A stretch of DNA of 32,000 nt from Candidatus Saccharimonadota bacterium (GTDB lineage: Archaea; Nanohalarchaeota; Nanosalinia; Nanosalinales; Nanosalinaceae): the NCBI RefSeq assembly GCF_047555085.1, contig NZ_CP180230.1:600001-632000 (forward strand), given 5' to 3'. The notes beneath the pieces are model-generated. The model was not told the origin of the DNA. It did not search any database and saw only the letters and a list, made by a program, of their open reading frames with translations. Positions 1 to 32,000 of the stretch are shown here, piece by piece; positions within the stretch are counted from its first letter, which is position 1, and every line of letters begins with the position of its first letter. A program made the translations under genes and the position numbers.

Positions 1-804
1 CTGTTTCTTAGATTTCATGATTTCTTGAAGATCTAATGGGAGGAAAGTGTAGTCTTCAAGTTCATCGAATCTGTTAAGCCAGTTATACACTGTGAGGGAT
101 ACAAGGCCCATGATAACGCTGTATGAAAGCAGTGGATTGGACAGGAATATGGACGTTACCGGGAAGTAAAGTACTAGAGTCCAGTAGAACGCTGTCAGAA
201 GGCCTACAGAGAAAAGAATCTTCAGGAATCCACCCGAGGATCTGAAGAGATCAAGCACAGATTTTGCGGACAAAGGCCTCAATCCGGATAGCCTGCCGTA
301 GTTGAGGAAGCGATTTGAGGGCAGGGTTAGCGAACTTACTGTTATTACTGTGCTGACAAGTATTCCTCCCAAGAAGAGTAAAGGAGCCATATAGACTACC
401 GAGACATAGTTAAGGCCTGCTAGTATAAGGAATCCTGCGATTATAGGCAGCACCATGAGTACAGAGTAGTAGAATATATCCTTGACTACAAAACTTGTAA
501 TCAGGCTTTTTCGTGATATCGGCAGTGTTCTGGAGGTGAATACGAGATAGTTTGTCCTGCCCAGTACATTTCTGAATGCATCACGGCTTGAAAATCCTAC
601 AGCTCCAACTCCAAGCCCCAGGAAAGCTGAGAGGCCTAGCACAAAGTTCTGAAGTGTTTCAGCAGTTATAACAGAAAAATTCAATGCCATCCAGTTCCAG
701 GCAAAACTGAAGAAAAATACAAGTACGGGGAAAGCTGCAAAAGAGCGGCCTCTGTACAGCGCAGAGTTCTTGCGCCACTCCTCTTCAATCATCTTCTTTA
801 TCAT
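1..804 (-). CDS. ABC-2-type transporter permease, truncated at the window edge (268 codons open to base 1)
   Basis: Own translation of the minus strand from ATG 804 (MIKKMIEEEWRKNSALYRGRSFAAFPVLVFFFSF...) has no stop down to base 1. It contains several hydrophobic spans. It lies 25 nt downstream of the ABC ATPase on the same strand. It is absent from the ORF track because it has no stop in the window. Confidence 0.7.
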   Translation of the reverse strand, partial: MIKKMIEEEWRKNSALYRGRSFAAFPVLVFFFSFAWNWMALNFSVITAETLQNFVLGLSAFLGLGVGAVGFSSRDAFRNVLGRTNYLVFTSRTLPISRKSLITSFVVKDIFYYSVLMVLPIIAGFLILAGLNYVSVVYMAPLLFLGGILVSTVITVSSLTLPSNRFLNYGRLSGLRPLSAKSVLDLFRSSGGFLKILFSVGLLTAFYWTLVLYFPVTSIFLSNPLLSYSVIMGLVSLTVYNWLNRFDELEDYTFLPLDLQEIMKSKKQ

Positions 805-829
805 AATTTTTTACAGGCCTCTACGTTAA

Positions 830-1507
830 TTATTGATCTTCCAGGAATTTTTCCTTCAAGTTTTCGACTTCTGTGATCTCTCTAGTTATTTTTCCATCTT
901 TAAGGAAGAAAACTCTATCGCATACCTCTTCTGCCAGGGAGATAACGTGTGTGCAGAGGAAGACTGTGCCTCCGTTGTCTCTTCTCTCCTTGAAAACTTT
1001 CTTGGCCTCTTCCTGGACTACAGGATCAAGATTGACGAGAGGCTCATCGATGAAAACAATCTCTGGATCATGGAAGAAGGCCTGAGTAATCATAAGTTTC
1101 TGTCTCTCTCCCTTGGAAAGATTGCGCGTCTGACTATCCATTTTTCCCTCCATGTTCAGTCTTTCTATCCAGGCCTGTTTATCGATTTCAGTATCCCTTG
1201 TATCTGAGACAAAGTCGAGGTATTCGCTGCCCGTCAGAAAGCTAGGCGGATCCTCTCTTTCCGGGAGTATGCCCATTTTTTCACGGGCCTCTACAGGATT
1301 TTCCGATGGATCTATTCCAAGTATCTCTGCAGTTCCTGCATCCGATTTCATCTGGCCTGTCAGTATCTGGATTAAAGTAGATTTCCCTGCGCCATTCGGG
1401 CCAAGTACACCGACTATCTCGCCCTCCTCCACTTCAAGATCGATGCCGTCAAGCGCTTTTACATCACCGAAACTTTTCTTCAGGCCTTTAACTTCGATAA
1501 GAGACAT
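830..1507 (-). CDS. ABC transporter ATP-binding protein
   Basis: Walker A GPNGAGKST, ABC signature LSKGERQK and Walker B IVFIDEP are present. A TATA-like AATTTATACAGG lies about 27 nt upstream of the ATG. Confidence 0.92.
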   Translation of the reverse strand: MSLIEVKGLKKSFGDVKALDGIDLEVEEGEIVGVLGPNGAGKSTLIQILTGQMKSDAGTAEILGIDPSENPVEAREKMGILPEREDPPSFLTGSEYLDFVSDTRDTEIDKQAWIERLNMEGKMDSQTRNLSKGERQKLMITQAFFHDPEIVFIDEPLVNLDPVVQEEAKKVFKERRDNGGTVFLCTHVISLAEEVCDRVFFLKDGKITREITEVENLKEKFLEDQ

Positions 1508-1605
1508 TGTTTGAACACTTATTCAGGCCTGTATAAATTGGTTGGGGGATGGAGTGAAGGAACAGTGGTTTAAGTTTAAATGCAGAAGTTCTTCTCTGTA
1601 CTGCG

Positions 1606-2685
1606 ATGAATCCTCAGGAAAGCGATAATGTTCTAAAGCACATACAGAGCGACAAGAAAAAGGTTTCAAACTTTCTCGATAACTATCTGGATGAATGGGA
1701 GGAGATGGAGCCTGATGCAAGCCGCTGGAGATCAGACATCAAGGGAAGAATGAAGGAAATGGCGAAAGGCGGCAAAATGGTGCGTGGCGCACTTGTACTT
1801 AAAACAAATAATTTCTACGACGGAAAAAATACAGATGAGGCAGTAAAAGTTGCCGGAGCGATTGAACTTCTGCATACAGGCCTCCTCATGCACGACGATA
1901 TAATCGACAAAGACGATTACAGGAGAGGGATGCCGACTTTCGCCAAGCAGTATCAGGAACTTGGTGAAGACGAGGATCTTGACAACGTCGAGCATTTCGG
2001 AGCAGGCATGGCTATAGCCGGCGGAGATATCGCATACTTCATGGGGCAGGGCCTGCTGGCAGATCTGGATATAAAGCCCGAAAAAAGGAGAAAGATCACA
2101 GAACTTGTTTTCTCCGAGTTCTCTGCTGTAGGCCTCGCAGAGCAGGTAGACATATACTCAGGGTACTCGAAGGAAGAGATTGATGAAGAAGAAATTATGC
2201 GGCTTTACAGAGATAAGACAGCGCGTTATACTTTCTCTCTTCCTTTCAAGGCCGGGGCTTTGATGGCTGAGGCCTCTGAGGATGAGATAGAAAGGCTTTA
2301 TCGACTGGGAGAGCGTATCGGTATTATCTTCCAGTTGCGTGACGATGAATTGAGTCTTTTCGGTGATGAGGCCGAGACAGGTAAGTCTCTGGGATCTGAT
2401 CTCGAGGAGAACAAGAAGACTCTGCATCGCTTGAAAATGCTGGAAAAGCTTCCTGAAGACGAAAGGGAAAGTATGCGTGAAAAACTCAGGAAGGATCTTG
2501 ATCACGAGGAGAAAGCAGAGATAATCGAGAAGATGAACGAGCTGGAAGTCCAGAAAGAAGTCCAGGAAAAGATGAGCGAACTCGCGGAAGAGGCCTACAG
2601 TGATATAGAGAATCTAGAGGCTCCTGAAGATTTCAAGGATTTCCTGCGGAAGCTGACGGATTTCTGTCTGGAGAGACGGAAGTAA
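1606..2685 (+). CDS. trans-polyprenyl diphosphate synthase (GGPP-synthase-like)
   Basis: First Asp-rich motif LLMHDDIIDKDDYRRG. The second motif, FQLRDDELSLFGDEAETGKSLGSDLEENKKT, reads DDELS rather than canonical DDxxD. TATA-like TTTAAGTTTAAAT lies about 25 nt upstream. Confidence 0.88.
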   Translation: MNPQESDNVLKHIQSDKKKVSNFLDNYLDEWEEMEPDASRWRSDIKGRMKEMAKGGKMVRGALVLKTNNFYDGKNTDEAVKVAGAIELLHTGLLMHDDIIDKDDYRRGMPTFAKQYQELGEDEDLDNVEHFGAGMAIAGGDIAYFMGQGLLADLDIKPEKRRKITELVFSEFSAVGLAEQVDIYSGYSKEEIDEEEIMRLYRDKTARYTFSLPFKAGALMAEASEDEIERLYRLGERIGIIFQLRDDELSLFGDEAETGKSLGSDLEENKKTLHRLKMLEKLPEDERESMREKLRKDLDHEEKAEIIEKMNELEVQKEVQEKMSELAEEAYSDIENLEAPEDFKDFLRKLTDFCLERRK

Positions 2686-2686
2686 G

Positions 2687-3088
2687 TCATGTATTAGGCC
2701 TGTAGGCCATCAGGTACAGCGTGAAAGCTGTGAATACTAAGGCTACCGAGGTAGAGACGATATTCTGTGGTGCAAGGCCTCCATTAGTTGACAGGCCTGC
2801 AGTATAACTTGAGTAAATCAGCACCAGGAAAACTGCTGTTTTCAGGGCCTCGTAGGAGTTTCTGTGTTCTGATTCGTCGTATCTTCTTCCTTTTCTCAGG
2901 ACGAGATGTAGATAGGCGAGAGCGATAAGCAGAAAGTTCGGAAGGATAAGTGCAAATGTTAATGATCCAAGATCCATGGACTGAAAGTATCCTACAAGGT
3001 ACGAGGATAAAAGCACTACTGTCGCGATCAGTGAATCTATGAGCATCCTTCTCTGTTTGAGGCCTATCACAGAAAATTTTTTCGTCAC
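2687..3088 (-). CDS. small integral membrane protein, unknown function
   Basis: 133-aa ORF with about 4 hydrophobic spans. It has a GTG start at 3088, and the internal ATG at codon 15 is also possible. No recognisable motif. Confidence 0.5.
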   Translation of the reverse strand: MTKKFSVIGLKQRRMLIDSLIATVVLLSSYLVGYFQSMDLGSLTFALILPNFLLIALAYLHLVLRKGRRYDESEHRNSYEALKTAVFLVLIYSSYTAGLSTNGGLAPQNIVSTSVALVFTAFTLYLMAYRPNT

Positions 3089-3168
3089 GAACTATGATAT
3101 ATTTTGGACCCAGGACTCTGTCAAGGCCTCGGATTTATTATCTTTCTGAAACTGTTTTTACGTGTTGG

Positions 3169-4335
3169 ATGAGAAAGACTGTTGATCTAGGCGATCGAAC
3201 TGTAACTTTAGTCGGTACTGCGCATGTATCTCAGGAGAGCAAGGAAGAGGTTCACTCCAGTATAGAGGAGCTTGAGCCGGATTTTGTAGGCGTGGAGCTT
3301 GATGAAAGCCGTTACGATTCCTTAAGAAATGGAAGCGGCTGGAAAGATTTGAACATAGTTGAGGCAATTAGAGAAGGTAAAGGGTTCCTTCTGTTCATGA
3401 ATCTCATTCTTTCAATCTACCAGAGGCGTATAGGCCTTCAGGAAGACGTTAAGCCTGGTGAAGAACTACTTGAAGCAGTTAAAACTGCTGAAGAAAATGA
3501 TATAGAGTACGGATTAATCGACAGAGACATCAATGAAACTTTCCGCATAGCCATGGAGAAGCTTTCTGTATGGGAGAAGCTGAAGCTTGTAAGCTCTATG
3601 TTTATCGCGGATGAAGAGATGGAAGTTGAAGACTTGAAAGAAGACAACATGCTTAACACTGTTATCAAGGCCTTGGAAGAAGAATTTCCTACCTTGAAGG
3701 AGACTTTTCTTGACGAAAGAAATCGTTTCATGGCCAAAAAAATACTTGACAGAGATTTTGAAAACGGAGTAGTTGTCGTAGGCGCTGCACATGTCGAAGG
3801 CCTTGCAGAAGAACTTCAGAAGAAAAGTGAAGACATACAGGTAAGAAAAGAAGATACAGGATTCTCACTTCCATGGCTGAAAATACTGAAGTACGGCATC
3901 CCTGCTTTGATAATCAGTATGCTTGCCTACAGCTTCTACAAGATAGGATTCTGTACAGGCCTGAATCTTACAGGAGCCTGGATACTGATGAACGGAATCG
4001 GAGCTTTCATCGGAGCTGTACTGGCAAGAGCTCATCCTGCGACATGGATAGTCTCATTCGTATCTGCTCCATTAACTTCCCTCTCACCTGCTATCGGAGC
4101 GGGCATGGTTGCGGCATACTTCGAGGGCAAGTTCTTCCCTCCTACTGTGGAGGAGCTTGAAAGCGTTGCAGAGATAACAGGATACAGAGATCTCTGGAGC
4201 AATCAGGCAAGCAAGATACTGCTTGTCTTCATACTTGTATCGATAGGAAGCGCTATCGCAACTTTCGCAGGGGCAGGATACATTGCTTCAAGCCTTGGAA
4301 CGGCTACAGCATGTACTTCTCTTCCCATCTTCTGA
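3169..4335 (+). CDS. TraB/PrgY family protein with C-terminal membrane domain
   Basis: N-terminal VTLVGTAHVSQESKEEV and later VVVVGAAHVEGL are typical of the TraB family, followed by C-terminal TM helices. I prefer ATG 3169 (MRKTVDLGD...) over the track start 3094, because TATA-like GGATTTATTATC lies about 30 nt upstream of 3169. Confidence 0.85.
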   Translation: MRKTVDLGDRTVTLVGTAHVSQESKEEVHSSIEELEPDFVGVELDESRYDSLRNGSGWKDLNIVEAIREGKGFLLFMNLILSIYQRRIGLQEDVKPGEELLEAVKTAEENDIEYGLIDRDINETFRIAMEKLSVWEKLKLVSSMFIADEEMEVEDLKEDNMLNTVIKALEEEFPTLKETFLDERNRFMAKKILDRDFENGVVVVGAAHVEGLAEELQKKSEDIQVRKEDTGFSLPWLKILKYGIPALIISMLAYSFYKIGFCTGLNLTGAWILMNGIGAFIGAVLARAHPATWIVSFVSAPLTSLSPAIGAGMVAAYFEGKFFPPTVEELESVAEITGYRDLWSNQASKILLVFILVSIGSAIATFAGAGYIASSLGTATACTSLPIF

Positions 4336-4975: not shown

Positions 4976-6545
4976 GGCTCTTTTCCTGGCCTATCGACAT
5001 GATCAGTGTAGACAGGCGTGGGCCGCTTTCCCTTCCGAGTATGGCCCTGTAGGAGGCCTCGAAGAAATCTCCGGCTTCCAGAGGTGATGCATCCTGAACG
5101 TTCCAGAGTTCGCCGTCCAGCTCATCAGCATCTTCAAAATCCTGATTCCCGAGAGCTTCCTGTATCAGATTCAGTGTTTCAACTTCCTCATCCGTAAAGT
5201 CTTCAGGAGGCCTCTCGTTGATTCTGTACACGTAGTCCTCGGGAGCGTATTCACGGGCCCAGTTCTTCGCTCTTCTCAGGCGATCGATTACCTGTTGCTC
5301 CTCATCTTCAGAGATATCCTCCGGGACATGTCCTGTCCGGCGAAGTGATTCAAGGCCTTTACTCCTCCATTCATCCTCAGGGACTGTCTGAGCGACGAAT
5401 GCAGCATGCTTGAAAGGTACACGAAGAGGCCTTTCATCAGGCAGTTCCACCATCGCCAGTTCGTAGACTCTTTCCTGATGCCTCTGCTTTTTCTCGTTGT
5501 CAAGGCCTTCCCCGAAGTAGTTTTCCTCAAATCTGTCGAAACGATCGTATATCTGTATGATCTCCTCATCGAAGGCCAGGTTGATCACTTTCTTCGGCTT
5601 TGTCTGGCTGAAAAGGAAACGAATCATCTCAGGACTGTATATCTCCTTCATGTCGTCGAGAGTCAATACGTTCTCTCCTGAACTCGATGAAATCTTTTTA
5701 TCCGAGCCTTTAGGCCTGACAAAATCGTACATCTGGTATACAGGTGCTTCAGCATCGTAGACTTCTTCTATTATCTGTTTGCCTGTATCCCTTGACGATC
5801 CTGCTGCGGAGTGATCCTTCCCTCCGGGCTCGAAGGAAACGTTTTCGTAGAACCATCTCATCGGCCAGTCAACTCTCCAGGGCGGCTTGACGGAATCCTC
5901 CTCCTTGAAATTGATTTCAAAGGCCTCTTCGCATTCGTTGCAGTTATATTCTACTGTGTATTCGCCGTCGTAGTCATTTATTTCTGTGAAGTCTTTGCCG
6001 CATTCCTTGCAGTAGACTCTGAGTGGCTGCCAGTCTTCTTCCAGCGGCTCCTGTCTATACTGATCCAGTATATCTTTGATCTTTTCCCTGTTGTTCATCG
6101 CTTTCTTGATCAAGTCAGCGTATTCGCCTTTCTGGAACATCTTGCTCTGGCGGATGAACTCGATATCCATGTGCATATCCTCGAGCTGTTCCTCAAGTCG
6201 GGCCTCGAAGTGTTCTGCGTAGCTTTCGTGGCAGCCTTCCGGATCTGGAACTTTGCTTAGCGGGAGGCCTATGTATTTCTCGAATTCGTCCGGTACGTTG
6301 TCAGGGACTTTTCTGAAACGATCGTAGTCGTCCCAGGAGTAGATGAATCGTGTATCTTCATCGTAGTACTGCAGCGATTTGACAACGAAGTCTGTAGTGA
6401 TGATCTCCCTGAAGTTTCCGATGTGGACGTGGCCTGAAGGAGAAATTCCGGATGCACATACGTATGTGTCCTGATCTTCGAATTTTCTCTTTACTCCGTA
6501 AGCTAGCTGGTCGGACCAGAAAAGTGGCTGTTCTTGATCGCTCAT
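4953..6545 (-). CDS. lysK: lysine--tRNA ligase, class I (archaeal type)
   Basis: HVHIGNFRE (HIGH) and KISSSSGENV (KMSKS-like), with a length of about 530 aa and the overall pattern of class I LysRS. Confidence 0.92.
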   Translation of the reverse strand: MSDQEQPLFWSDQLAYGVKRKFEDQDTYVCASGISPSGHVHIGNFREIITTDFVVKSLQYYDEDTRFIYSWDDYDRFRKVPDNVPDEFEKYIGLPLSKVPDPEGCHESYAEHFEARLEEQLEDMHMDIEFIRQSKMFQKGEYADLIKKAMNNREKIKDILDQYRQEPLEEDWQPLRVYCKECGKDFTEINDYDGEYTVEYNCNECEEAFEINFKEEDSVKPPWRVDWPMRWFYENVSFEPGGKDHSAAGSSRDTGKQIIEEVYDAEAPVYQMYDFVRPKGSDKKISSSSGENVLTLDDMKEIYSPEMIRFLFSQTKPKKVINLAFDEEIIQIYDRFDRFEENYFGEGLDNEKKQRHQERVYELAMVELPDERPLRVPFKHAAFVAQTVPEDEWRSKGLESLRRTGHVPEDISEDEEQQVIDRLRRAKNWAREYAPEDYVYRINERPPEDFTDEEVETLNLIQEALGNQDFEDADELDGELWNVQDASPLEAGDFFEASYRAILGRESGPRLSTLIMSIGQEKSREILSKI

Positions 6546-6620
6546 ATGGAAAGCTTGCTCAAATACATTTTTACTCGTTACCCGGGAAAAAGGGGAATTA
6601 TTAAAGACCTGTGAACATTC

Positions 6621-7883
6621 TTGACTTGTATGTCAGTAACCGGATTTTTACAGGGAGTTAATCCACGGCTTGTATTCATGATAATTTTTGCCGGTGCACT
6701 GGCATTACTGATGTACAGGGACAGGAACAGCGTGCAGAGACAGTCAATACTTTTCTACAGAAGAACAAAGAAAGGCCTGAAACTTATAGACAGCATTGCA
6801 CAGAGATTTCCACGTTTCTGGAACTTCTACGGATGGGCAGGCCTCGTTGTAGGAGTCATCTCTATTCCTTTCATCCTCTGGAACATCGTGCTTTCGTTCT
6901 CACAGATGACACAGACGGGCGGAGCTTCCGGAGGCCCAAGTCTGATAGCTCCAGGCCTTTCCGGAGAGACAACTTTCCAGTCAGGTATCTCATTCATCCC
7001 TGTAGAGTACTGGCTGATCGCGATAGGCGTACTGATGTTCGTCCACGAAATGAGTCACGGCATAGTCGCCAGAGCAGAAGGAATGGAGCTTAACAGCGTC
7101 GGCTGGATCGTACTCGGGATAATTCCTGGAGCGTTCGTGGAGCCTAAAGGAGAGCAGATGCTGCCGGGAGAAGATGAAGAAAAAGACGGAGAAAACGAAG
7201 AGGCCTCTCTTGGAGGACACTGGGATCAGGGAACTCTCAGTTCAAGATTGAAGGTTCTTGCAGCAGGAAGCTTCGCAAATTATATTACAGCAGCAGTTAT
7301 GGGCGTATCAGCTCTTGCACTGTTTATGACTGTCGCCCAGCCTACAGGAGTTTTCTACCAGGCACAGGATGGACTGCCGGCAGCTGAATCAGGCATGAAC
7401 AACGGAACACTTTACAGCATCGGTGAACAGCCTGTGCATTACGGAAGTGACGTTCGGAAAGCACTTGAGAACTACGAGATAAACGATACTGTAGAAGTGA
7501 ACACGTCAGAAGGCATGTTTAATGTCACACTTATGGACAGAAACAGCTCCGCGCACATGGGAGTACTGATAGCCTCCGGCGAAGGCCCTGTGGCAGCGTT
7601 CTTCGACATGATATACGACAGAAGAACGATAAAGCCAGAATACAAGGATATTGAGGGCTTCCTGAGCTGGACACTTGGAGGACTGGAGGTAATAGCATTG
7701 CTCAATCTACTGATCGGACTTTTCAACATGTTGCCGATCAGGCCTCTTGATGGAGGACAAATGGTAGGAGCTGTAGTCGACAAATACTTTGAAGACAGCC
7801 AGACAGCATTCAATTACATCTCACTTGTCGTCTGGATATTCCTGCTTGGAGCAATGATATTTTCGATAGCTACAGGCCTGTAA
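6621..7883 (+). CDS. site-2 protease (M50 family) membrane metalloprotease
   Basis: HEMSHGIVAR (HExxH) and NMLPIRPLDGG (NxxPxxxLDG) are present in a multi-TM protein. TTG at 6621; ATG at 6630 is the likelier start. Confidence 0.88.
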   Translation: MTCMSVTGFLQGVNPRLVFMIIFAGALALLMYRDRNSVQRQSILFYRRTKKGLKLIDSIAQRFPRFWNFYGWAGLVVGVISIPFILWNIVLSFSQMTQTGGASGGPSLIAPGLSGETTFQSGISFIPVEYWLIAIGVLMFVHEMSHGIVARAEGMELNSVGWIVLGIIPGAFVEPKGEQMLPGEDEEKDGENEEASLGGHWDQGTLSSRLKVLAAGSFANYITAAVMGVSALALFMTVAQPTGVFYQAQDGLPAAESGMNNGTLYSIGEQPVHYGSDVRKALENYEINDTVEVNTSEGMFNVTLMDRNSSAHMGVLIASGEGPVAAFFDMIYDRRTIKPEYKDIEGFLSWTLGGLEVIALLNLLIGLFNMLPIRPLDGGQMVGAVVDKYFEDSQTAFNYISLVVWIFLLGAMIFSIATGL

Positions 7884-8018: not shown

Positions 8019-8213
8019 ATGAGTGAAGATACAAAGGAATGCCCTTACTGCGGAGAAGTCTTCGAATCCGATGATGAAGGAGATGCCGACATCAAGGAAG
8101 GAATCCATAGAGCTGAGGAACATGTGAACAACAACAGCTCCAAGGAAACAACTTCCAAGTCAAGCGGATCCAACATCGTCAGAAAGTGGAAGACTGAAGG
8201 CAAGAGGGCTTAA
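8019..8213 (+). CDS. small CPxCG / C2H2-like zinc-finger protein
   Basis: MSEDTKECPYCGEVFESDDEGDADIKEGIHRAEEH gives a Cys-x2-Cys ... His-x4-His pattern. ATG 8019 is preferred over the TTG 7992 of the track. Confidence 0.6.
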   Translation: MSEDTKECPYCGEVFESDDEGDADIKEGIHRAEEHVNNNSSKETTSKSSGSNIVRKWKTEGKRA

Positions 8214-8288
8214 AGAACCACATATACAGAACTTTCTTTTTTATTTACCGAAAGAACATTTCCCCCCCCCCAAATTTTTTCTTATCTG

Positions 8289-8636: not shown

Positions 8637-8658
8637 AAAATTCTACAGAGGCCTCAAC

Positions 8659-10464: not shown

Positions 10465-10471
10465 ATTCTCT

Positions 10472-11395: not shown

Positions 11396-12013
11396 TCAGT
11401 CCTGGAAGTTGGTGTACTTTGAACTCGAGTCCGTATAAAGTATTCCTACGGCTCTGTGAGTAACCTGATCGACGTTTATCCTTGAAGAGTGCTCGTTGTT
11501 ATCTCCCCGCATAAGCAGGTAATCGCTTGTCTCGAGATAGTTGGCCTGGACTCTGTGGATGACGTAGCCATCACCTGTCTCGTAACGAAGTATCTCTCCT
11601 TCAGTTATCTCTCCTCCTTCGTAGGCCTGTAGAAGTACCGTGTTGCCGGAGAAAATTGTAGGCCTCATAGACTTTCCCTCGGGCTGTGCTACGGCATCAA
11701 CTTCCACCGAGGCCTCTCCATCGCCGACGCTGTAATCAACATCGGTGTAAGAGGCCTGAATGTAATTGTTGATGTTGGACTGTGATCCATCGCTTCTTAG
11801 ATTATCTGCCTGTCTGAGATCCTGCTGTGGTTCAGGACAGGTTATATTGTACGTCGGCGTCTGGACCATCTGTGTATCTTCCCCAAGATCTGAGAGTTCA
11901 TAGGTGCTGACGGCTCCCCCCAGGTAGCCTATAGCCAGCACTAGAATAACAAGAAGTACCTCCCCCAGATTTGAAAACCCCTTCCTCATATTGTTACTAC
12001 TTTGAAATAACAC
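11396..12013 (-). CDS. signal peptidase I, archaeal/eukaryal Sec11 type (S26B)
   Basis: N-terminal TM helix, then the boxes GKSMRPT (Ser), GEILRY, VIHRV (His) and RGDNN. Confidence 0.82.
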   Translation of the reverse strand: MLFQSSNNMRKGFSNLGEVLLVILVLAIGYLGGAVSTYELSDLGEDTQMVQTPTYNITCPEPQQDLRQADNLRSDGSQSNINNYIQASYTDVDYSVGDGEASVEVDAVAQPEGKSMRPTIFSGNTVLLQAYEGGEITEGEILRYETGDGYVIHRVQANYLETSDYLLMRGDNNEHSSRINVDQVTHRAVGILYTDSSSKYTNFQD

Positions 12014-12118
12014 TTAAGTACCTTTTGCTTTTGTTGTTACTTTCTCAAAACAACTAGTTCCTGTGACAAGTTATAATAACGAAAAACGAGAAAACGATGG
12101 ATGTAGAGGCCTCAAAAA

Positions 12119-12661
12119 ATGCCGGATGAAGAAGCTGATTCAGTGCGGGAGAAAATTGTTGATCGACAGAAGCAGGTCATGGAGCACAAGAGCATGGCAG
12201 GACTTCTGCTTGCCACAGCCGTTGTGCTTGCAACTTTCGGTACGGCGGCTATGCTGATGCCGGATAATCCTACAGGATCTTTCTCCGGTGACTTCAGAAT
12301 CCAGAACGTTCAGATAGAAGACGTGAATATCCGTGGCGTAGAGGCCTCTGAGACAGGCCTTACTTTCGTACAGGACTACGAAATCAGTAATCCTAATCTC
12401 CTACGGGCAGAGTTCAAGGCAGCTTCTTACCGTGTAAATGTAGAAGGCGAATCTGTTGATACAGGACACATAAATGGAGAAACAGTTATAGACACCGGAC
12501 AGAGCGAGATGATCGCCCTACTCCACGAAACAGCTTTAAGCGAGAGATACAGAGGCACCACACCAGTAACAGTTGAAGGAAAAATGGTGTTCCAGATAGG
12601 AGATACAGAGTTCGAAAGATACTACAGGAACAGCTTCGAGGCCGAGTTCCCTGTAAGATAG
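12119..12661 (+). CDS. membrane-anchored LEA_2/WHy-like protein
   Basis: TM helix (MAGLLLATAVVLATFGTAAMLM) followed by a beta-rich domain with ISNPN ... YRVNVEGESVDTG. An SD-like GAGG lies 9 nt upstream. Confidence 0.5.
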   Translation: MPDEEADSVREKIVDRQKQVMEHKSMAGLLLATAVVLATFGTAAMLMPDNPTGSFSGDFRIQNVQIEDVNIRGVEASETGLTFVQDYEISNPNLLRAEFKAASYRVNVEGESVDTGHINGETVIDTGQSEMIALLHETALSERYRGTTPVTVEGKMVFQIGDTEFERYYRNSFEAEFPVR

Positions 12662-14367: not shown

Positions 14368-14385
14368 AGGCCTTTTTTGAGGCCT
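14368..14385. terminator. AGGCCT-TTTTTG-AGGCCT hairpin with T-run between convergent genes
   Basis: Two copies of the self-complementary hexamer separated by TTTTTG, located between the uspA stop (14357) and the Nudix-like stop (14404). Confidence 0.4.
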
Positions 14386-15081: not shown

Positions 15082-15156
15082 GGGCCCGTAGCTCAGCTTG
15101 GACAGAGCGAGCGGCTTCGGACCGCTAGGTCTAGGGTTCAAATCCCTACGGGCTCG
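15082..15156 (+). tRNA. tRNA-Arg (anticodon TCG)
   Basis: Manual cloverleaf: acceptor GGGCCCG/CGGGCTC, D arm GCTC..GAGC, anticodon stem AGCGG/CCGCT with loop CTTCGGA, and T arm TAGGG-TTCAAAT-CCCTA. No intron, and CCA is not encoded. Confidence 0.9.
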
Positions 15157-15264: not shown

Positions 15265-16674
15265 TTACTTGTCCATGATGCTTTCTACTGTCCTGATCTG
15301 CATCATGTTGGTGGTGCCTGTAACGGACGTCGGGATTCCTGCGGAAAGAACAAGTTCGTCTTCACCGGAGGCCAAGTTCAGACTTTTCATTCGGCGTGCG
15401 GAGGCCTCTAGCATCCCTTCAACATCATCCGGGAATTCCTCGTAGTAGGCATTTACTCCCCATGCAAGCTGCAGCTGTCTTTCAACTCTTTCCGAATCCG
15501 TGAATGCGATGATCGGGTTCTCAGGCCTGTACTTGGAGATGTTGCGTGCTGTGCTTCCTGAAGATGTGTGGGCCACGATGTACTCTGCCTCTGAGTCTCT
15601 CGCTGCCTGCCAGACGTTCTTGCAGATGATCTCTCTTGTCGTCTCCGGTGGCTGCTTGACAGTATGATGTGTATTACCTTCCATAGAGGCCTCTGCCTCT
15701 TCTACCACGTTCGACATGAATTTTACAGTTTTGACAGGGTAGTCTCCGATTGCTGTCTCGCCGGAAAGCATTACTGCATCCGTACCATCCAGTACTGCGT
15801 TCGCTACGTCGGATATCTCGGCTCTTGTGGCCGTAGGATTTTCTGTCATCGACTCCAGCATCTGTGTCGCTGTTATAACAGGTTTACCGGCCTCGTTGCA
15901 TTTCTCTATCATCTCTTTCTGCATCATCGGAAGCTCAGCCGGCGGAAGCTCTACACCTAGATCTCCACGAGCCACCATGATAGCATCAGAGGCCTCCAGG
16001 ATCTCGTCAAAGTTCTCCACGGCCTTCTTGTGTTCGATTTTCGAGATAATATGCATATCGGAATCATGCTCATCCAGGATCTCTCTGACTTCCTCTACAT
16101 CCGAGGCCTCTTTCACAAAGCTGAGGGATACAAAGTCGTAGCCTTTCTCTGCTGCGAACTCGATATCTTCAACATCTTTCTCTGTCGGTGCTGAAAGGCC
16201 TATATCTTTCCCCGGTACGTTGACTGCTTTTCTACTGGATACTTCGCCGCCGTAGACTACTGTACACTCTGCAGTGTCATCCACTTTCTCTACTTCAAGC
16301 TCGATCTTTCCGTCGTCAATCCTGACTTCGTCGCCGGCCTCAATATGATTGATGAAATCACTGTAGTTGACTGAAAGAACTTCTTCATCACCAGTGATTT
16401 CTTCATCCGTTGTCAGTTCCACGCTGTGGCCTGTCTCAAGTACTGTATCTTCCTTTACTTCTCCGAGTCTGATCTCCGGGCCTTTTGTATCGATCATTAC
16501 TGCGGTTTTCTCTGATACGTCGCGGATTCTGTCGTATATTTTTCCGTGCTGTTTGTGGTCGACGTGTGAGAAGTTCTGCCGTACTACGTCAACTCCTGAA
16601 TCAATTATTTCTGAAAGTTTCTGTTTCGAGTCTGTTGCCGGGCCTATGGTGGATATTATCTTGGTGTTTTTCAT
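15265..16674 (-). CDS. pyk: pyruvate kinase
   Basis: MKNTKIISTIGPA, MIDTKGPEIR, MVARGDLGVE and ATQMLESM are present. Confidence 0.93.
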   Translation of the reverse strand: MKNTKIISTIGPATDSKQKLSEIIDSGVDVVRQNFSHVDHKQHGKIYDRIRDVSEKTAVMIDTKGPEIRLGEVKEDTVLETGHSVELTTDEEITGDEEVLSVNYSDFINHIEAGDEVRIDDGKIELEVEKVDDTAECTVVYGGEVSSRKAVNVPGKDIGLSAPTEKDVEDIEFAAEKGYDFVSLSFVKEASDVEEVREILDEHDSDMHIISKIEHKKAVENFDEILEASDAIMVARGDLGVELPPAELPMMQKEMIEKCNEAGKPVITATQMLESMTENPTATRAEISDVANAVLDGTDAVMLSGETAIGDYPVKTVKFMSNVVEEAEASMEGNTHHTVKQPPETTREIICKNVWQAARDSEAEYIVAHTSSGSTARNISKYRPENPIIAFTDSERVERQLQLAWGVNAYYEEFPDDVEGMLEASARRMKSLNLASGEDELVLSAGIPTSVTGTTNMMQIRTVESIMDK

Positions 16675-26991: not shown

Positions 26992-28303
26992 TGGATACGA
27001 GTTAGGTACGGCGAAGGTTTTCCAGGATTTTGCAACAGCTTTCGATGCTTTGAAGACTGCGGAACAGAACGTACAGTTTTCTATTGATCCCAGTCAGGGC
27101 CTGACACGGGAACGTTATGGATGGTATTCTAATGGAAATATTTTTGATTCAAGTTATTTTTCCAGTGATGCCGGTGAAATCGGTATCTCTACGGGTACAG
27201 GCAGCACTGATACAGCAAGGATAAGATCCGGTTACGCAGGACAGTACGTTTCACAGAGTCTGGCACAGCCAGGTCATGCGGTCAGGATTGATTCCGGGAA
27301 CGTGAATATTGATGGAAGCGGCCTGGTTTCCTTGAGCCATGGTAACGTCAAGATAGGGCCTTTCATGCATGATGGCTCTCAGGTGACAGAAGGATTTTTC
27401 ATCGAGTTTGACTCCTCGGGCACAAGATTTGTCCGTGTGAGAGGAGGAACACGTGTGACAGAGGTCGATCAGGCTAACTGGAATCTGGATAATATGACCG
27501 GTCAGGGAGGCTCCGCTAATCCTTCCGGTGAACAGCTGGATCCCTCCGAAATGTATATCTACAACTATCCGTTTACTTGGTATAACTCTGGGCGGCTTTC
27601 GATCGGTAGAAGCAGGACCACCGGCATACCGAAGCCCCAGCAGATCCAGTTGTGGCACGAGTTCCAGCCAAGCGGAGAACCTAACCTGAATACTGCAAAT
27701 CTTCCTGTACAGATAGTATTTGACAACGCAGGTACAGGCCAGAGTCTTTCCGGTGCCCTGGGAGGCATGCAGTACAGTATCTACGGGGGAGATGGGCCTG
27801 TCGAGAAAAGAGTTACAGAGGCCATTGACAACGATATCTCGATAAGTGTTGCACGGAACGATCCTATCGATCCTGCGGCACAGCCAGGAACACCGATTTT
27901 TGCGGTGAGACGGCAGAGCGGCTACGAGGATCTGGAAGTTATGATCAGCGACCTGGAAGTTGTACCGTCCAGCACAGACCTGTTTTTCTACGTGTGGTAT
28001 GTCTGGGATTCGTCTGCACTTTCCGGAGCAAGCTTCAATCAGGCCTCTACAAGAAACTTCAGCTCGGAGACACGTATAGAAATCGATAAATCAGCGACGT
28101 CTTTCGATGCAACAAACGCCATCAATGAAAGAGTCTTCCGTGTAAGCGGAGCTAAAAACAACGAGAAAGTGAGTGTGTTCCCTAGAGAGGCCGAATCAAG
28201 ACTTCCTCTGGAAGCTACTGCAGTCGTAACAGCTGTAGAGGCCGATACTAACGGAAACGGGACTACAGCAGACGTCGTCATGCCTATCATCGAAGGATTC
28301 TAA
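26984..28303 (+). CDS. 439-aa G/S/T/N-rich protein, no signal peptide, unknown function
   Basis: Long ORF. ATG 26984 overlaps the upstream stop (ATGAGTGA). There is no hydrophobic N-terminus, no TM helix and no catalytic motif I recognise. Confidence 0.75.
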   Translation: MSDGYELGTAKVFQDFATAFDALKTAEQNVQFSIDPSQGLTRERYGWYSNGNIFDSSYFSSDAGEIGISTGTGSTDTARIRSGYAGQYVSQSLAQPGHAVRIDSGNVNIDGSGLVSLSHGNVKIGPFMHDGSQVTEGFFIEFDSSGTRFVRVRGGTRVTEVDQANWNLDNMTGQGGSANPSGEQLDPSEMYIYNYPFTWYNSGRLSIGRSRTTGIPKPQQIQLWHEFQPSGEPNLNTANLPVQIVFDNAGTGQSLSGALGGMQYSIYGGDGPVEKRVTEAIDNDISISVARNDPIDPAAQPGTPIFAVRRQSGYEDLEVMISDLEVVPSSTDLFFYVWYVWDSSALSGASFNQASTRNFSSETRIEIDKSATSFDATNAINERVFRVSGAKNNEKVSVFPREAESRLPLEATAVVTAVEADTNGNGTTADVVMPIIEGF

Positions 28304-28330
28304 ATTCCTCAATGGAGGAGAAAAAATTCT

Positions 28331-28609
28331 GTGAGAGATATAGTCGAAACAGAGAAAATCAGCGACGAACAACTCGATGGTGTCCACGCCAGACTTGAAC
28401 AGAACTCTGAAGACCGGACAGTTATAGAAGAGACCGGTACAGAGGCCGAAAGAATCTTCCGCTACAAGTTCGAAGAGGAAGACCTTGGAGAGATATGGTA
28501 TGGACAGATCGACATAGAGATCTACGATAAAACTTTCCAGGCTCGTGGAGACGAAGCACTTCTCAACAGGTACTTTGCGGAAAACAGGATACAGGAAATA
28601 GAGTACTGA
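28331..28609 (+). CDS. 92-aa acidic hypothetical protein
   Basis: GTG start with GGAGGAG 12 nt upstream. Same strand as, and tight spacing with, its neighbours. Confidence 0.5.
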   Translation: MRDIVETEKISDEQLDGVHARLEQNSEDRTVIEETGTEAERIFRYKFEEEDLGEIWYGQIDIEIYDKTFQARGDEALLNRYFAENRIQEIEY

Positions 28610-28666
28610 AAGAACTCAAAAACTTATTAACAGAAAATTCCAAAAAACTAGTTAGAGGCCTTGAAA

Positions 28667-28933
28667 ATGAGTATTCGCTGGGATTCAGAAACTGACTGGA
28701 AAAACAATCAAGACTCCTCAGGTACTACAGGACGGAACGGAAACTTGAAGCAGGGATACTCTCATGACAGGCCTCCGCTTTCACAAGACTTGATCGGATA
28801 CTGGCCTCTACACGACGAATCAGCAACAGATTACTCAGGAAACAACAATCACGGGACTCTCAACGGCGGGCCGACGACGGGAGTTGCAGGAAAAGGAGGC
28901 CTTGAAGCAATGAGTTTCGACGGCTCCGATGAT
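28667..28933 (+). repeat. Paralogous 5' module shared with 31220-31486 (roughly three-quarters nt identity by eye)
   Basis: Aligned by eye. It includes an identical 25-mer, TCGGATACTGGCCTCTACACGACGA (28794-28818 = 31347-31371). An 18-mer core is also at 30101-30118. The second shared block, 29371-29450 = 31921-32000, is even more similar. Confidence 0.8.
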
Positions 28934-30091
28934 TATATTTCTGTAGGATCTTTGAATGTAGGAACTACAGTTACAGCTACAGCGTGGGTTAATCTGGATG
29001 AGAGAAAGTCCAGTGAAAATCATACTATAGGCCCTCATGTGGACAACGGAAGCACACAGGGATTCAGAATATTTACTGATTCAGACACAGAAGAGGTAGG
29101 TGTCTGGACGAGAAATGATAACAGCTCCGTTGATAATCTAGTGAGTTCCTACTTGCCGCCGCTGAATGAATGGGTGTTCATAGCATTCACATATGACGGT
29201 TCAACAGGCCGACTATACGCCGATGGACAGGAAATCGCTTCAGGCATTATGGAGGCAAATTCCTTCGCCGGGACAAGCTTCATAGCCAGGTACTCGGGAG
29301 GAGGTTACAATCTAAACGGGCAGCAAGCCGGCGTAAGACTCTACAACGGGCCTCTCTCACAGAGCGAGATAAATACACTGTACGAATGGGGATCAGGCGA
29401 TTATGCAAGGCCTCCGAGTGACGGTGTTTCATACTACAAGTTAGATGGTGACGCCAATGATAGTTGGGGAGCCAACGATGGGAGTAACAGTGGCGCTGCT
29501 TTTATCTCGGACTCTATTCGGGGGAGTGCCTTAGAGTTTAATGCCGGTGAGAGTGACCGTGTTGATATATCTCATGTAACTGAGCTTAATCCGTCGAACG
29601 GGCGTTTGACTGTTTCCTGCTGGGTGAAGTCGGATTCAGCTCCGTCGAATACGCCAGGGATAGTTGGAAAGGTAGACGGTGCGTTCGCCAACGGATATCA
29701 GTTGTTCCACAACGGAGATGGTACTGTGACTTTCCGGGTCGAGGATTCACCGGAGAACGTGGCCACTGTCTCCAGCAGCAACAGTATATCACACGGCAAC
29801 TGGACCATGATCACTGCAGTACTTGACAGGCCTAACGGCGTTCAGAGGCTTCACATCAACGGGGAAACAGTTGATACGAACGATCCATCCAATCTTAAGA
29901 CAGTGGACCCGTCTGCAGATCTGAAGTTCGGGGTTTTTGATCCTCCAAACAGCAGCAAGGAACGCTACTGGTCAGGTAAGTTAGACGACGTACGGATCTA
30001 CGACTACGCTCTCAAACCATACGAAGTAGCTGAAACTTACAGGTACGGTACGAGAGGCCGTGACCTGAGAAAACAACTGGTGAATCACTGA
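28667..30091 (+). CDS. tandem LamG (Laminin_G_3 / concanavalin-A-like) domain protein, no signal peptide
   Basis: There are two units. Unit 1 opens with GYWPLHDESATDYSGNNNHGTLNGG...MSFDGSDDYISV and closes with AGVRLYNGPLSQSEINTLYEWG. Unit 2 opens with YYKLDGDANDSWGANDGSNSGA and closes with DDVRIYDYALKPYEV. ATG 28667 (MSIRWDSE) matches the paralogue start MAIRWDSE. Confidence 0.85.
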   Translation: MSIRWDSETDWKNNQDSSGTTGRNGNLKQGYSHDRPPLSQDLIGYWPLHDESATDYSGNNNHGTLNGGPTTGVAGKGGLEAMSFDGSDDYISVGSLNVGTTVTATAWVNLDERKSSENHTIGPHVDNGSTQGFRIFTDSDTEEVGVWTRNDNSSVDNLVSSYLPPLNEWVFIAFTYDGSTGRLYADGQEIASGIMEANSFAGTSFIARYSGGGYNLNGQQAGVRLYNGPLSQSEINTLYEWGSGDYARPPSDGVSYYKLDGDANDSWGANDGSNSGAAFISDSIRGSALEFNAGESDRVDISHVTELNPSNGRLTVSCWVKSDSAPSNTPGIVGKVDGAFANGYQLFHNGDGTVTFRVEDSPENVATVSSSNSISHGNWTMITAVLDRPNGVQRLHINGETVDTNDPSNLKTVDPSADLKFGVFDPPNSSKERYWSGKLDDVRIYDYALKPYEVAETYRYGTRGRDLRKQLVNH

Positions 30092-30778
30092 ATGGTACTA
30101 GTCGGATACTGGCCTCTAAACGAAACCTCCGGAACAACGGCATACGACGTCAGGAACGGAAACGATGGAACAGTCAACGGTGCCGGACCTGATGGAACAG
30201 GTACTTCTTCAGGCCTGCTTAACTCCTCAGCGTACTCGTTTGATGGGACTGATGACTATGTGACTATGCCTCGTTCGAGGGAAGGTTTTCCGAAAAGCTA
30301 TTCTGTATGGTTTAACCCGGGAGATGGTTCCGGATATCCTGCAGTACTACGTGATGATTACCATACTCAGGACGCTTACAGTGGAATAAGTATACAGTAT
30401 AACGCTCCAGACACCTGGGCGCTACAGATAGGCGATGGCAGCGGATCAGGTTCCAGCCACAGAAAAAGTCACAAAGGAGGAGATTTAACTCTGGGAAACT
30501 GGCATCACCTTGTTGCCGTGGCAAGAGGAGTAAACGATGTAGAACTCTACAAAAACGGTGTAAACGACTACAAAGGTGTTTCAGGAAGCGGGAGTTCAGT
30601 TCAGTACATCGGCTCGAAAAACGTTATGGGATTCAGGCCCGCAGGAAGCTACTACACTCCAGGAAAAATACAGCATGTCAGAATCTACGACCACGCACTG
30701 ACACCGCAGGAAGTACAGTACATGTATTCAGTCGGAAAAAATAGAGGCCTGCACATCTCCAGCGAAAAAACTCTGTAA
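30092..30778 (+). CDS. single LamG-domain protein, no signal peptide
   Basis: MVLVGYWPLNETSGTTAYDVRNGNDGTVNG...YSFDGTDDYVTM...IQHVRIYDHALTPQEVQYMY. The start codon directly abuts the upstream stop (TGAATG). Confidence 0.85.
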   Translation: MVLVGYWPLNETSGTTAYDVRNGNDGTVNGAGPDGTGTSSGLLNSSAYSFDGTDDYVTMPRSREGFPKSYSVWFNPGDGSGYPAVLRDDYHTQDAYSGISIQYNAPDTWALQIGDGSGSGSSHRKSHKGGDLTLGNWHHLVAVARGVNDVELYKNGVNDYKGVSGSGSSVQYIGSKNVMGFRPAGSYYTPGKIQHVRIYDHALTPQEVQYMYSVGKNRGLHISSEKTL

Positions 30779-30804
30779 AAAACTTCCGAAAGATAAATCC
30801 CAGT

Positions 30805-30816
30805 AAAAAATTTTTT
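30805..30816. terminator. A6T6 palindromic oligo-T tract between convergent genes
   Basis: AAAAAATTTTTT gives a T6 run on both strands, between the LamG stop (30778) and the gatC stop (30817). Archaeal termination commonly uses oligo-T. Confidence 0.4.
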
Positions 30817-31095
30817 CTAGGCGCTTGGGCCTTTGAAGTATCCTTCTTCCTCGTTTTCCGTATTCTGGAAGACTTCTTCTTTTTCAAGAGTTTCCTCTTT
30901 CTCATCGCTTCTTGTCGTCGAATCGACGTCCACAGGATGGAAAGATGGCTCAACATCTTCTGTATCAACTTCGTCAAGAGTCTCGAACATTCCCAGAATC
31001 TTATCGAATTCCTCTGAGAACTTCGAGGCCTCTTCATCTGAAAGATTGATCCTTGCGTTCTTCGCAACTTTCTGAACTTCTTTTTGATCTACCAT
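30817..31095 (-). CDS. gatC: aspartyl/glutamyl-tRNA amidotransferase subunit C
   Basis: 92 aa. VQKVAKNARINLSDEEASKFSEEFDKILGMFETLDEVDTEDVEP is the typical GatC pattern. Confidence 0.85.
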   Translation of the reverse strand: MVDQKEVQKVAKNARINLSDEEASKFSEEFDKILGMFETLDEVDTEDVEPSFHPVDVDSTTRSDEKEETLEKEEVFQNTENEEEGYFKGPSA

Positions 31096-31219
31096 ACTTC
31101 AGAACTGTAGACAAATTCTTTAGTAATCCACGGAGAGCCCAAAAAAATTTCCACAGGCCTCTGAAAAGTAATTTATTAGGAAGATTCAAATTAACTTATA
31201 GAGGCCTCAGAAATTTTTC

Positions 31220-32000
31220 ATGGCGATAAGATGGGATTCAGAAAGCGACTGGGAGAACAGTCAGGACAGTTCCGGTACAGTCGGCAGAAATGGAAATCTA
31301 CGGCAAGGATATTCAAGAGAAAAGCCTCCGCTTTCTCAAGGCCTTGTCGGATACTGGCCTCTACACGACGATTCGGCGACTGATTACTCAGGAAATAATA
31401 ATCATGGAACACTCAATGGCGGAGTCACGACAGGCATCGCTGGAAAAGCTGGTTTACAGGCGATGAGTTTTGATGGGAGCGATGATAGTATCGATATTCC
31501 TGATCAGCTTTTATCTAATGGCTCTTCTTTAACTCTTTCTTTCTGGTTCAAGGCCGATACACTAGGGAACGATGATCGTCCTGTGGCAATCAGCCAGAGC
31601 CATGAATGCCTTGCAAATATAGGTCGTTCAGGAACTAACGAGATTGGTGTTCGATGGAGAGCAGGAGACGGTAACGCGAGAGATTATGAATTCAAAACTA
31701 TTTCTACAGATACATGGCATCACTATGCAGTTACCTATGACAGTAGCTCAGGCGACTTGAAAGGCTATCTTAACTCAACAGAACAGCTGTATAAAGCCGG
31801 TATTGGTTCTTCAGGTATAAGTCAGGAATCGGCTATAGGGCAGAAAGGAGGTACAGGATATTTCAATGGAAAAATCTCAGACGTCCGTATATACAACCGT
31901 ACTCTATCCTTATCCGAAATAAATACGCTGTACGAATGGGGATCTGGCGACTATGCGAGGCCTCCAAACGACGGAACGGCATACTACAAGTTTGATGGTG
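31220..32000 (+). CDS. LamG-domain protein, paralogue of 28667..30091, truncated at the window end
   Basis: Own translation gives MAIRWDSESDWENSQDSSGTVGRNGNLRQGYSREKPPLSQGLVGYWPLHDDSATDYSGNNNHGTLNGG...ISDVRIYNRTLSLSEINTLYEWGSGDYARPPNDGTAYYKFDG, with no stop to base 32000. It is not in the ORF track. Confidence 0.85.
   Translation, partial: MAIRWDSESDWENSQDSSGTVGRNGNLRQGYSREKPPLSQGLVGYWPLHDDSATDYSGNNNHGTLNGGVTTGIAGKAGLQAMSFDGSDDSIDIPDQLLSNGSSLTLSFWFKADTLGNDDRPVAISQSHECLANIGRSGTNEIGVRWRAGDGNARDYEFKTISTDTWHHYAVTYDSSSGDLKGYLNSTEQLYKAGIGSSGISQESAIGQKGGTGYFNGKISDVRIYNRTLSLSEINTLYEWGSGDYARPPNDGTAYYKFDG

Follow-up and report, generated by a model that had tools for sequence, protein, structure and literature searches.

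How does a genome come to be filled with copies of a single six-base palindrome? The question is raised by a 32-kb stretch of Candidatus Nanosalina sp. VS9-1, a DPANN nanohaloarchaeon (the window, meaning the whole of these 32,000 nucleotides), in which the hexamer AGGCCT occurs 140 times. Our analysis confirmed that this excess is real and specific for the perfect palindrome, which looks like a highly iterated palindrome (HIP) of one set of nanohaloarchaeal lineages: point substitutions have turned near-cognate sequences into AGGCCT at the positions where the coding sequence leaves room, and closely related lineages have acquired or lost the force behind this on more than one occasion. As the most likely cause we tentatively favour, with somewhat less than even confidence, a molecular drive that is specific for the sequence and linked to a cognate DNA methyltransferase or to a repair/recombination activity.

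Abundance of AGGCCT and its dependence on the full palindrome

An earlier note on this DNA, tallied by eye, had put the palindrome at about 140 copies against 5–10 expected, an excess of about 20-fold, at a GC content in the mid-40s %. Exact counting bears this out: the window holds 140 copies (4.4 per kb, mean spacing 228 bp) at a GC content of 46.2%, and the example positions listed in that note are all correct apart from 1079, which is really 1078. Independent bases predict 6.6 copies and a first-order Markov model 7.3, with 100 dinucleotide-preserving shuffles of the window giving 7.7 (standard deviation 2.9, maximum 15): the excess is 19-fold in the window and 16-fold across 12 loci (228 kb) from genomes that show the same trait. 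AGGCCT is the top-ranking hexamer of the window, where every other palindromic hexamer reaches at most 22 copies, and this StuI-type target shows the opposite of restriction-site avoidance, a 16–19-fold excess. The single-mismatch neighbours, which the earlier tallies had placed much lower, are indeed rarer: GGGCCT occurs 24 times, AGGCCC 21, CGGCCT 17, TGGCCT 15, AGGCCG 14 and AGGCCA 7, with 1–14 copies for each of the inner-position neighbours. Relative to expectation, the outer one-base variants are enriched (AGGCCC/GGGCCT 2.95-fold, AGGCCG/CGGCCT 2.1-fold, AGGCCA/TGGCCT 1.55-fold), and the inner variants lie at 0.58–1.15 of expectation, a mild depletion in which transitions equal transversions. 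The core GGCC is present 258 times in the window, 140 of these with the A...T flanks and 20 with neither flank matching. Since none of the other NGGCCN palindromes exceeds expectation (TGGCCA 2, CGGCCG 1, GGGCCC 3), the signal belongs to the full hexamer and not to GGCC.

In order to separate the excess from protein and codon composition, two codon-aware null models were compared with the 111 sites that lie in open reading frames (ORFs). Synonymous codon shuffling within each gene (300 shuffles) returned 17.7 sites (standard deviation 3.6, maximum 28), which leaves a 6.3-fold excess (z ~25), and shuffling of codon order returned 8.2; the former null is conservative, because the codon usage that it preserves already includes site-derived codons. 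Markov models, the other yardstick put forward in the earlier note, give 6.6, 7.3, 26 and 68 copies for orders 0–3, with the excess spread over the sub-words (ratio 1.3–1.6 per step), and 138 for order 4. Formally, this last value reproduces the observed count, within the 2-fold margin that the earlier note had named as refuting the excess; however, full sites contain 77% of all AGGCC and 71% of all GGCCT pentamers in the window, so that the order-4 model is conditioned on the signal itself and the test is circular.

The sites are spread over codon phases 0, 1 and 2 as 22, 38 and 51, encoding Arg-Pro, [Lys/Gln/Glu]-Ala-[Ser/Tyr/Phe/...] and x-Gly-Leu, respectively. Whilst 79% of them lie within ORFs, their density is 4.1 per kb in the listed ORFs and 5.7 per kb outside, and the short true spacers carry 8 sites in ~1 kb. 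The claims that all three phases, spacers and genes of both strands are affected therefore hold, as does the view that the effect acts on DNA rather than on protein, given that the excess survives protein-preserving codon shuffles and extends to all phases and to spacers. As a feature, the iterated palindrome is unstranded:

1–32000: 140 dispersed AGGCCT copies, present in spacers and in all listed genes apart from a single 92-codon ORF

The flanks of the sites had been described as showing no conservation, which is nearly right: in the window they carry at most 0.2 bit of information per position. A weak symmetric context is present nonetheless, T being favoured at -3 and avoided at -1 and A, in mirror image, avoided at +1 and favoured at +3, and this preference is seen in each codon phase and in non-coding DNA. 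The extended element thus spans ~12 bp (T-N-V-AGGCCT-B-N-A), and a weak symmetric 12-mer in all contexts is what would be expected of a dimeric protein acting on duplex DNA. In the top-hexamer lists, the preferred 8-mer is GAGGCCTC in VS9-1 and its relative L216 and AAGGCCTT in SG9, Nanohalobium and the metagenomic loci L081 and L082; this difference may mean that the recognising protein has drifted in its extended specificity.

Origin of the sites and their distribution among relatives

For comparison, loci of up to 21 kb were gathered around three different genes of the window. Twelve loci from ~10 related genomes (228 kb) are trait-positive, with 919 sites against 56 expected, and 14 loci from other nanohaloarchaea (248 kb) are trait-negative, with 62 sites against 56 expected (1.1-fold); the second-ranked palindrome of the trait-positive set is enriched only 2.6-fold. 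Site densities of 2.3–6.3 per kb were found in SG9 (two regions), two Nanohalobium metagenome-assembled genomes (MAGs) and six metagenomic relatives with GC contents of 39–50%. Among the trait-negative loci are those of Nanohalococcus occultus SVXNc and of a MAG carrying the label Ca. Nanosalina sp., and all haloarchaeal and methanogen loci likewise contain AGGCCT at expectation. The comparison with relatives that the earlier note had proposed thus assigns the trait to certain nanohaloarchaeal clades, not to archaea or to nanohaloarchaea in general. Extrapolated from the density in the window, the ~1-Mb genome of VS9-1 would hold ~4,600 sites.

In a neighbour-joining tree of concatenated lysyl-tRNA synthetase (LysRS), M50 peptidase and TraB sequences (1284 columns), VS9-1 and L216 form a pair (100% bootstrap) that is joined by L219 (99%). 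The sister of this clade, with 100% support, is a trait-negative pair, L215 and L218 (grouped at 100%), and SG9 forms a separate positive clade with Nanohalobium (100%), around which other negatives branch. On this tree, the trait must have arisen twice or more, or have arisen once and then been lost two or more times. With a trait-negative pair as sister of the VS9-1 clade and with the positive clades separate, the responsible factor appears to be dispensable. Remnants of former sites in the trait-negative sister were sought as near-sites, and none could be detected at this high divergence, the mean number of mismatches being 2.1–2.9 against 2.4–3.0 in outgroups. Two of the relatives deserve separate description. 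L081, the closest by pyruvate kinase (86%), has a GGCC density like that of the window (7.6 per kb), with full AGGCCT making up 31% of GGCC, a saturation of 54% and many AGGCCN and NGGCCT half-sites; here, the trait may be decaying or weakening, or its specificity may be relaxed. L216, from a TARA sample and 87% identical, carries 99 sites in 15.7 kb (6.3 per kb, above the window), 17 of which are absent from both VS9-1 and L219.

The alignments reveal how the sites arose. Gaps were present in 19 of 399 site-by-orthologue comparisons, the remainder aligning without gaps, and at the site positions the relatives show near-neighbour hexamers that are mostly synonymous. Sites are therefore substitutions in orthologous codons, not insertions. 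The following sites (all unstranded; columns are those of the codon alignments) illustrate this:

15523–15528: pyruvate kinase site encoding Arg-Pro, kept in 6 of 6 trait-positive orthologues (column 1149); trait-negative orthologues have CGCCCA, AGACCG or AGACCA
20932–20937: GatB site, kept in 5 of 5 aligned trait-positive genomes (column 17)
3798–3803: site in a TraB-family gene, present in 5 of 5 trait-positive genomes (column 716); trait-negative genomes have GGGACT, AGGACT, GGGAGT, AGGCAT or GGGCCT
5712–5717: LysRS site with an amino-acid change, AGG CCT (Arg-Pro) in 4 of 5 trait-positive genomes (column 831); trait-negative genomes have AAG/AAA CCG (Lys-Pro), ACA CCG (Thr-Pro) and, once, ACCAAG
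7740–7745: site in the M50 peptidase gene with a Lys-to-Arg change, AAG CCG/T to AGG CCT (column 1239)
15687–15692: lineage-specific, non-synonymous gain in pyruvate kinase (column 985); other genomes have AAAACT, AACAGA, AACAAT and others

Conversion has proceeded close to the limit that the proteins set. Of 139 positions in the window at which the encoded peptide permits AGGCCT synonymously, 111 carry it (Arg-Pro 22 of 24, x-Gly-Leu 51 of 60, [KQE]-Ala-[FLSYCW] 38 of 55), and such opportunities are saturated to 54–79% in enriched loci, compared to 0–14% in non-enriched ones. The permissive peptides are themselves more frequent in enriched than in non-enriched genomes, at 14.9 versus 8.5 per 1000 codons and at 1.5–1.9 versus 0.8–1.0 relative to amino-acid composition. 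As this peptide excess is confined to trait-positive genomes, it is an effect of the force and not its cause, and as the replacement of Lys-Pro (AAG CCG) by Arg-Pro (AGG CCT), seen for example at 5712 and 7740, is limited to the same genomes in the alignments, the protein sequences have been altered by the force as well.

Across the six most divergent genome pairs, 35–64% of the sites are conserved in position, compared to 8–19% for control hexamers. Where two genomes share an opportunity, however, its realisation in the first says little about the second (odds ratio 1.6, P=0.16), and peptides that are permissive in one genome only are realised about as often as shared ones (~77% pooled). Because realisation is nearly independent between genomes, the conservation mostly reflects conserved peptides together with a force at work in each lineage. 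This force is directional and is still creating sites on recent branches: with L219 as outgroup, 24 sites are unique to VS9-1 or L216, against 6 that have been lost from one of the two. Most site differences within this closest pair involve 2–3 bases, which makes it too diverged for a single-step mutation spectrum.

The spacing statistics suggested in the earlier note show that the sites are under-dispersed, with a deficit of pairs below 40 bp (17 against 58 expected at 6–20 bp). An opportunity that lies close to another is less likely to be realised (59% versus 77%, P=2e-8), and within closely spaced pairs of opportunities the two states are roughly independent. No helical, nucleosome-like or ~30-bp periodicity was detected, the short range showing a 3-bp period alone. 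A quasi-periodic distribution at the 10–90 kb scale, another mark of HIP-type palindromes, concerns distances largely beyond the 32 kb of the window and the loci of at most 21 kb.

A proposed molecular drive and the competing explanations

The counterparts of AGGCCT that come closest are the cyanobacterial HIP1 (GCGATCGC) and the alternate HIPs (GGGATCCC, GGCGCC, GCCGGC, GCsGC), and the earlier note was right to name HIP1 and uptake sequences as precedents. AGGCCT and the HIPs are alike short, GC-rich perfect palindromes that are enriched at least 15-fold (known here from 228 kb of loci), occur in all reading frames and in non-coding DNA without conserved flanks, spread via substitution, are accompanied by outer-position one-base variants and are conserved in position above control motifs, as likewise reported for HIP1 (PMC5861425); the sporadic distribution among relatives is shared with the alternate HIPs. 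The differences lie in the archaeal (DPANN) host, the sequence, a density of 4–6 instead of ~1 site per kb, and a saturation of 54–79% of the synonymous opportunities that measurably changes proteins. This is not HIP1 proper, which is GCGATCGC in a cyanobacterium, recognised by DmtC and DmtA. Genomes with HIP-type palindromes encode a methyltransferase for the motif or its core; none was found in the trait-positive loci sampled here. Iterated palindromes are hence known as a kind, and the present one is new in domain, motif, density and protein effect. In the searched literature, we found no report that combines AGGCCT with nanohaloarchaeal, DPANN or palindrome terms and no mention of strain VS9-1, in agreement with the earlier statement that no archaeal equivalent was known. 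Why cyanobacteria carry thousands of copies of HIP1 has been a puzzle for ~30 years, for which repair-ratchet, selection and uptake-signal views compete; a HIP-type phenomenon that appears independently in another domain, and in genomes of ~1 Mb, brings a new case to this question.

In the explanation that we favour, the force would be molecular drive rather than selection acting site by site, and it would require a protein that recognises DNA site-specifically, can be dispensed with and is probably mobile. The prime candidate would be a StuI-type AGGCCT cytosine methyltransferase, either orphan or within a restriction-modification (R-M) system, presumably working together with repair or recombination, by which mismatches or heteroduplexes would be resolved toward the cognate (methylatable) sequence. 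Such a process could act as a ratchet of the type that Elhai proposed, far stronger here, and would halt once the coding sequence offers no more room. Elhai's repair-ratchet model was developed for HIP1 and the hexameric alternate HIPs and describes the same pattern of outer-position variants (PMC4390886), and that AGGCCT-specific methyltransferases exist is known from A. borkumensis, in which almost all 1674 AGGCCT sites are methylated (PMC12128166). The earlier note had left the choice between selection and a mutation or repair bias undecided: a still-active directional force is now favoured, and the choice between the two is not settled by it.

Several observations weigh against a methyltransferase-linked drive. 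There is no transition-specific signature of deamination or very-short-patch repair, as the inner neighbours are depleted about equally and the one-base differences between orthologues include transversions. The A and T flanks are left unexplained by Elhai's G-mC logic, and in his model saturation is reached at around 1 site per kb, compared to 4–6 per kb here. A methyltransferase alone cannot be enough, because A. borkumensis possesses an active AGGCCT R-M system without hyper-enrichment (PMC12128166), and the sole nanohaloarchaeal methylome in the searched literature comes from a trait-negative strain and has the motif GDGCHC. The positional conservation of HIP1 above controls was, moreover, taken as a sign of selection by Xu et al. 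(PMC5861425). Finally, the search for a StuI-family methyltransferase or a very-short-patch repair gene, a check that the earlier note had named, came back empty: the ORFs of the window (Pfam, NCBIfam, PADLOC) yielded neither a DNA methyltransferase nor a Vsr or restriction gene, 164 kb of trait-positive DNA (motif searches and phmmer) no C5 or N4/N6 DNA methyltransferase, and the Pfam-annotated genes of four further trait-positive loci no such gene, these screens having covered a few percent of each ~1-Mb genome. Two motif matches in the trait-positive screen proved to be an HD-domain protein and a cupin, not methyltransferases.

Some methyltransferase-like genes were encountered along the way. 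Trait-negative L218 encodes at 11647–12297 (+), between LysRS and rhomboid, a 216-residue Type II N4/N6 DNA methyltransferase (PF01555; PADLOC MTase_II, E=1e-20); it was rejected as the driver on account of its trait-negative genome and of homologues spread widely across haloarchaea (Halorussus, Natrialba, Halococcus). Of the 120 family members listed, none is named from VS9-1, SG9 or Nanohalobium. At the corresponding position SG9 has a generic, unrelated S-adenosylmethionine (SAM) methyltransferase, and VS9-1 has nothing. In the window, an unannotated 149-residue ORF at 23977–24426 (+) contains a G-S-G-I-D stretch and gives a 13.7-bit match (E=0.03) to a SAM methyltransferase model; it shows no DNA-methyltransferase motifs, no match in PDB or PADLOC and no homologue in the sampled loci. 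We also looked for carriers in a viral collection. Among the matches listed, a scan for a triple-site pattern returned chance and tandem-repeat cases, and the few viral contigs with dispersed, dense sites were not halophile-like and shared no genes with nanohaloarchaea; protein-based scans of the same collection found nothing.

Two methyltransferase systems invite comparison with the proposed drive. In the Dcm/Vsr very-short-patch repair of E. coli, with its excess of CCWGG and deficit of CTAG-type sequences, a repair activity linked to a methyltransferase turns near-cognate sequences into cognate sites and alters oligonucleotide frequencies across the genome, as would be the case here. The E. 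coli effect is below ~2-fold and restricted to T:G mismatches, whereas the effect on AGGCCT is 16-fold and lacks a transition-specific signature. The StuI-type R-M system of A. borkumensis SK2 has the same recognition sequence, which is methylated there on both strands (PMC12128166). It differs in that the targets of R-M systems are normally avoided, not accumulated. In the ~3.1-Mb genome of A. borkumensis, 1674 sites amount to ~0.5 per kb, which is not hyper-enriched.

Of the alternatives, two remain serious, each being unlikely in our estimate. The first is direct selection, with AGGCCT as the binding site of an abundant chromosomal protein acting in nucleoid organisation, segregation, replication or global transcription, and with the high density kept up by what every site adds to that function; for HIP1, Xu, Lawrence and Durand argued in favour of selection (PMC5861425). 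The positional conservation above control hexamers speaks for this explanation, the symmetric ~12-bp context is typical for a dimeric DNA-binding protein, and the deficit of pairs below 40 bp and the lower realisation of neighbouring opportunities fit a footprint or spacing requirement. However, once the peptide opportunity is accounted for, the presence of sites is nearly independent between genomes, such that conservation need not equal retention, and neither a helical nor a ~30-bp periodicity is present. Close relatives wholly without sites would be odd for a core architectural function, and thousands of sites overriding codons and some amino acids would call for an implausibly large benefit per site.

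Equally improbable in our judgement is a role in self-recognition during DNA uptake or recombination, the newest of the views on HIP1 and comparable to that of the uptake signal sequences (USS) of Pasteurellaceae and the DNA uptake sequences (DUS) of Neisseriaceae, in which DNA carrying (methylated) AGGCCT would be preferred and the site would spread by drive through exchange within a species. USS and DUS are thought to arise by molecular drive, and the features of drive seen here (saturation, independence between genomes, 24 gains against 6 losses) fit this explanation equally well. They too are over-represented in genes and spacers, with occasional inverted pairs at gene ends, and one inverted pair is found at a convergent gene end in the window. 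Haloarchaeal host DNA contains ~40-fold fewer sites (0–4 per 21 kb), so that AGGCCT could mark self, and HIP1 raises transformation in a way that depends on methylation and co-varies with uptake machinery (preprint 10.64898/2026.06.24.733823). On the other hand, USS and DUS are non-palindromic sequences of 9–12 bp that occur ~1 per kb and have known receptors and competence systems, whereas here a 6-bp palindrome, of low specificity in comparison, is found 4.4 times per kb and only one terminator-like pair occurs in 32 kb. No competence or uptake genes turned up, although no search was aimed at such genes, and the Nanohalobium genome paper makes no mention of DNA uptake or competence.

It is very improbable that the motif acts at the RNA level, with AGGCCU in transcripts of either orientation serving as an element of processing, modification or structure. 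Genes of either orientation do contain the sites, as do short, probably transcribed spacers, but an RNA motif would have no need to be perfectly palindromic. Read along the coding strand, the flanking bases show their symmetric preference in all three phases, as for recognition of duplex DNA, and the sites favour no particular distance from starts or stops, only 4 of 30 genes having one in the 30 nt upstream. Practically excluded are an excess that simply follows from amino-acid, codon or dinucleotide usage and a motif that forms the core of a dispersed repeat (a repetitive extragenic palindrome or miniature inverted-repeat transposable element, i.e. at least 20 bp, mainly intergenic and inserted as a unit): the match of the order-4 Markov model is circular and, common as Arg-Pro, Gly-Leu and Glu-Ala-Ser are, codon-preserving shuffles yield 17.7 sites against 111 and the peptide excess is limited to trait-positive genomes, whilst the uninformative flanks (at most 0.2 bit), the location of most sites in ORFs and the substitution origin in ungapped orthologous codons rule out the repeat, as the earlier note had also held.

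Returning to the drive as the preferred explanation, a more far-reaching form of it is possible, if doubtful: a transferable, sequence-specific module that rewrites every permissive position of the genome as AGGCCT, against codon choice and some amino acids, either by methyltransferase-guided repair or recombination or as an archaeal system of self-recognition or uptake. If true, this would be the first archaeal system of its kind and would provide a mechanism for HIP-type palindromes generally. Since the trait has been switched on or off several times among close relatives, its driver could be identified by gene presence and absence, for which sister lineages with and without the trait are at hand, including at least one positive genus (Nanohalobium) with a cultivated member. 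A six-base force at the DNA level that has nearly doubled certain di- and tripeptides and imposed Lys-to-Arg changes also matters for models of codon usage and phylogeny in DPANN archaea, for k-mer binning and taxonomic signatures, and for the use of StuI or HaeIII.

Further features of the window

The LysRS encoded in the window is 100% identical to that of VS9-1. The genes of the window are of archaeal housekeeping type with acidic products, in line with the archaeal origin that had been proposed from the sequence. Three features of site placement (the first two unstranded) stand out:

14368–14385: inverted pair AGGCCT-TTTTTG-AGGCCT, with sites 12 bp apart, between the convergent Usp and NUDIX genes
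12107–12112: GAGGCCTC 12 nt 5' of a start codon, resembling a Shine-Dalgarno sequence; other such placements at 8649 and 19531
26981–28609 (+): two ORFs with function-less annotation and the lowest site density, 1 site in 1.6 kb and 1 of 4 opportunities realised

The earlier note had described hairpin-forming pairs and overlaps with Shine-Dalgarno-like boxes. The pair at 14368–14385 can indeed form a hairpin with a 6-bp stem and a T-run but is the sole such case in the window, and the Shine-Dalgarno-like overlap occurs in merely 3–4 of 30 genes; both are incidental by-products. The low-density ORFs at 26981–28609 adjoin genes for surface proteins with Laminin_G_3 and CARDB domains and may represent a more recent acquisition or faster evolution.

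A number of minor observations concern regions without sites. A tRNA-Arg gene (anticodon TCG; 15082–15156, +) lies in the spacer 5' of pyruvate kinase and is devoid of AGGCCT. Between the M50 peptidase and ferredoxin genes, a gap of 405 bp that is free of sites contains a 64-codon ORF (8019–8213, +) with a CPYCG zinc-ribbon-like motif, at the position of which ORFs of 64–66 codons were called in L215, L216, L218 and L219. Directly 5' of the ferredoxin gene, at 8262–8271, a run of ten C is followed by AAATTTTTT; it is the only G or C homopolymer of at least 8 in the window and could be a slippage-prone tract.

Other palindromes are under-represented in the trait-positive and trait-negative sets alike. 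In the pooled trait-positive loci, CGCGCG was observed 0 times against 14 expected, GCGCGC 1 against 14, GTGCAC 4 against 24, CTTAAG 22 against 77 and TCTAGA 40 against 119; for the window alone, the figures are 2 against 16 for both TCTAGA and GAGCTC and 0 against 8 for CAATTG. This rarity looks like ordinary avoidance of restriction sites or of CTAG.

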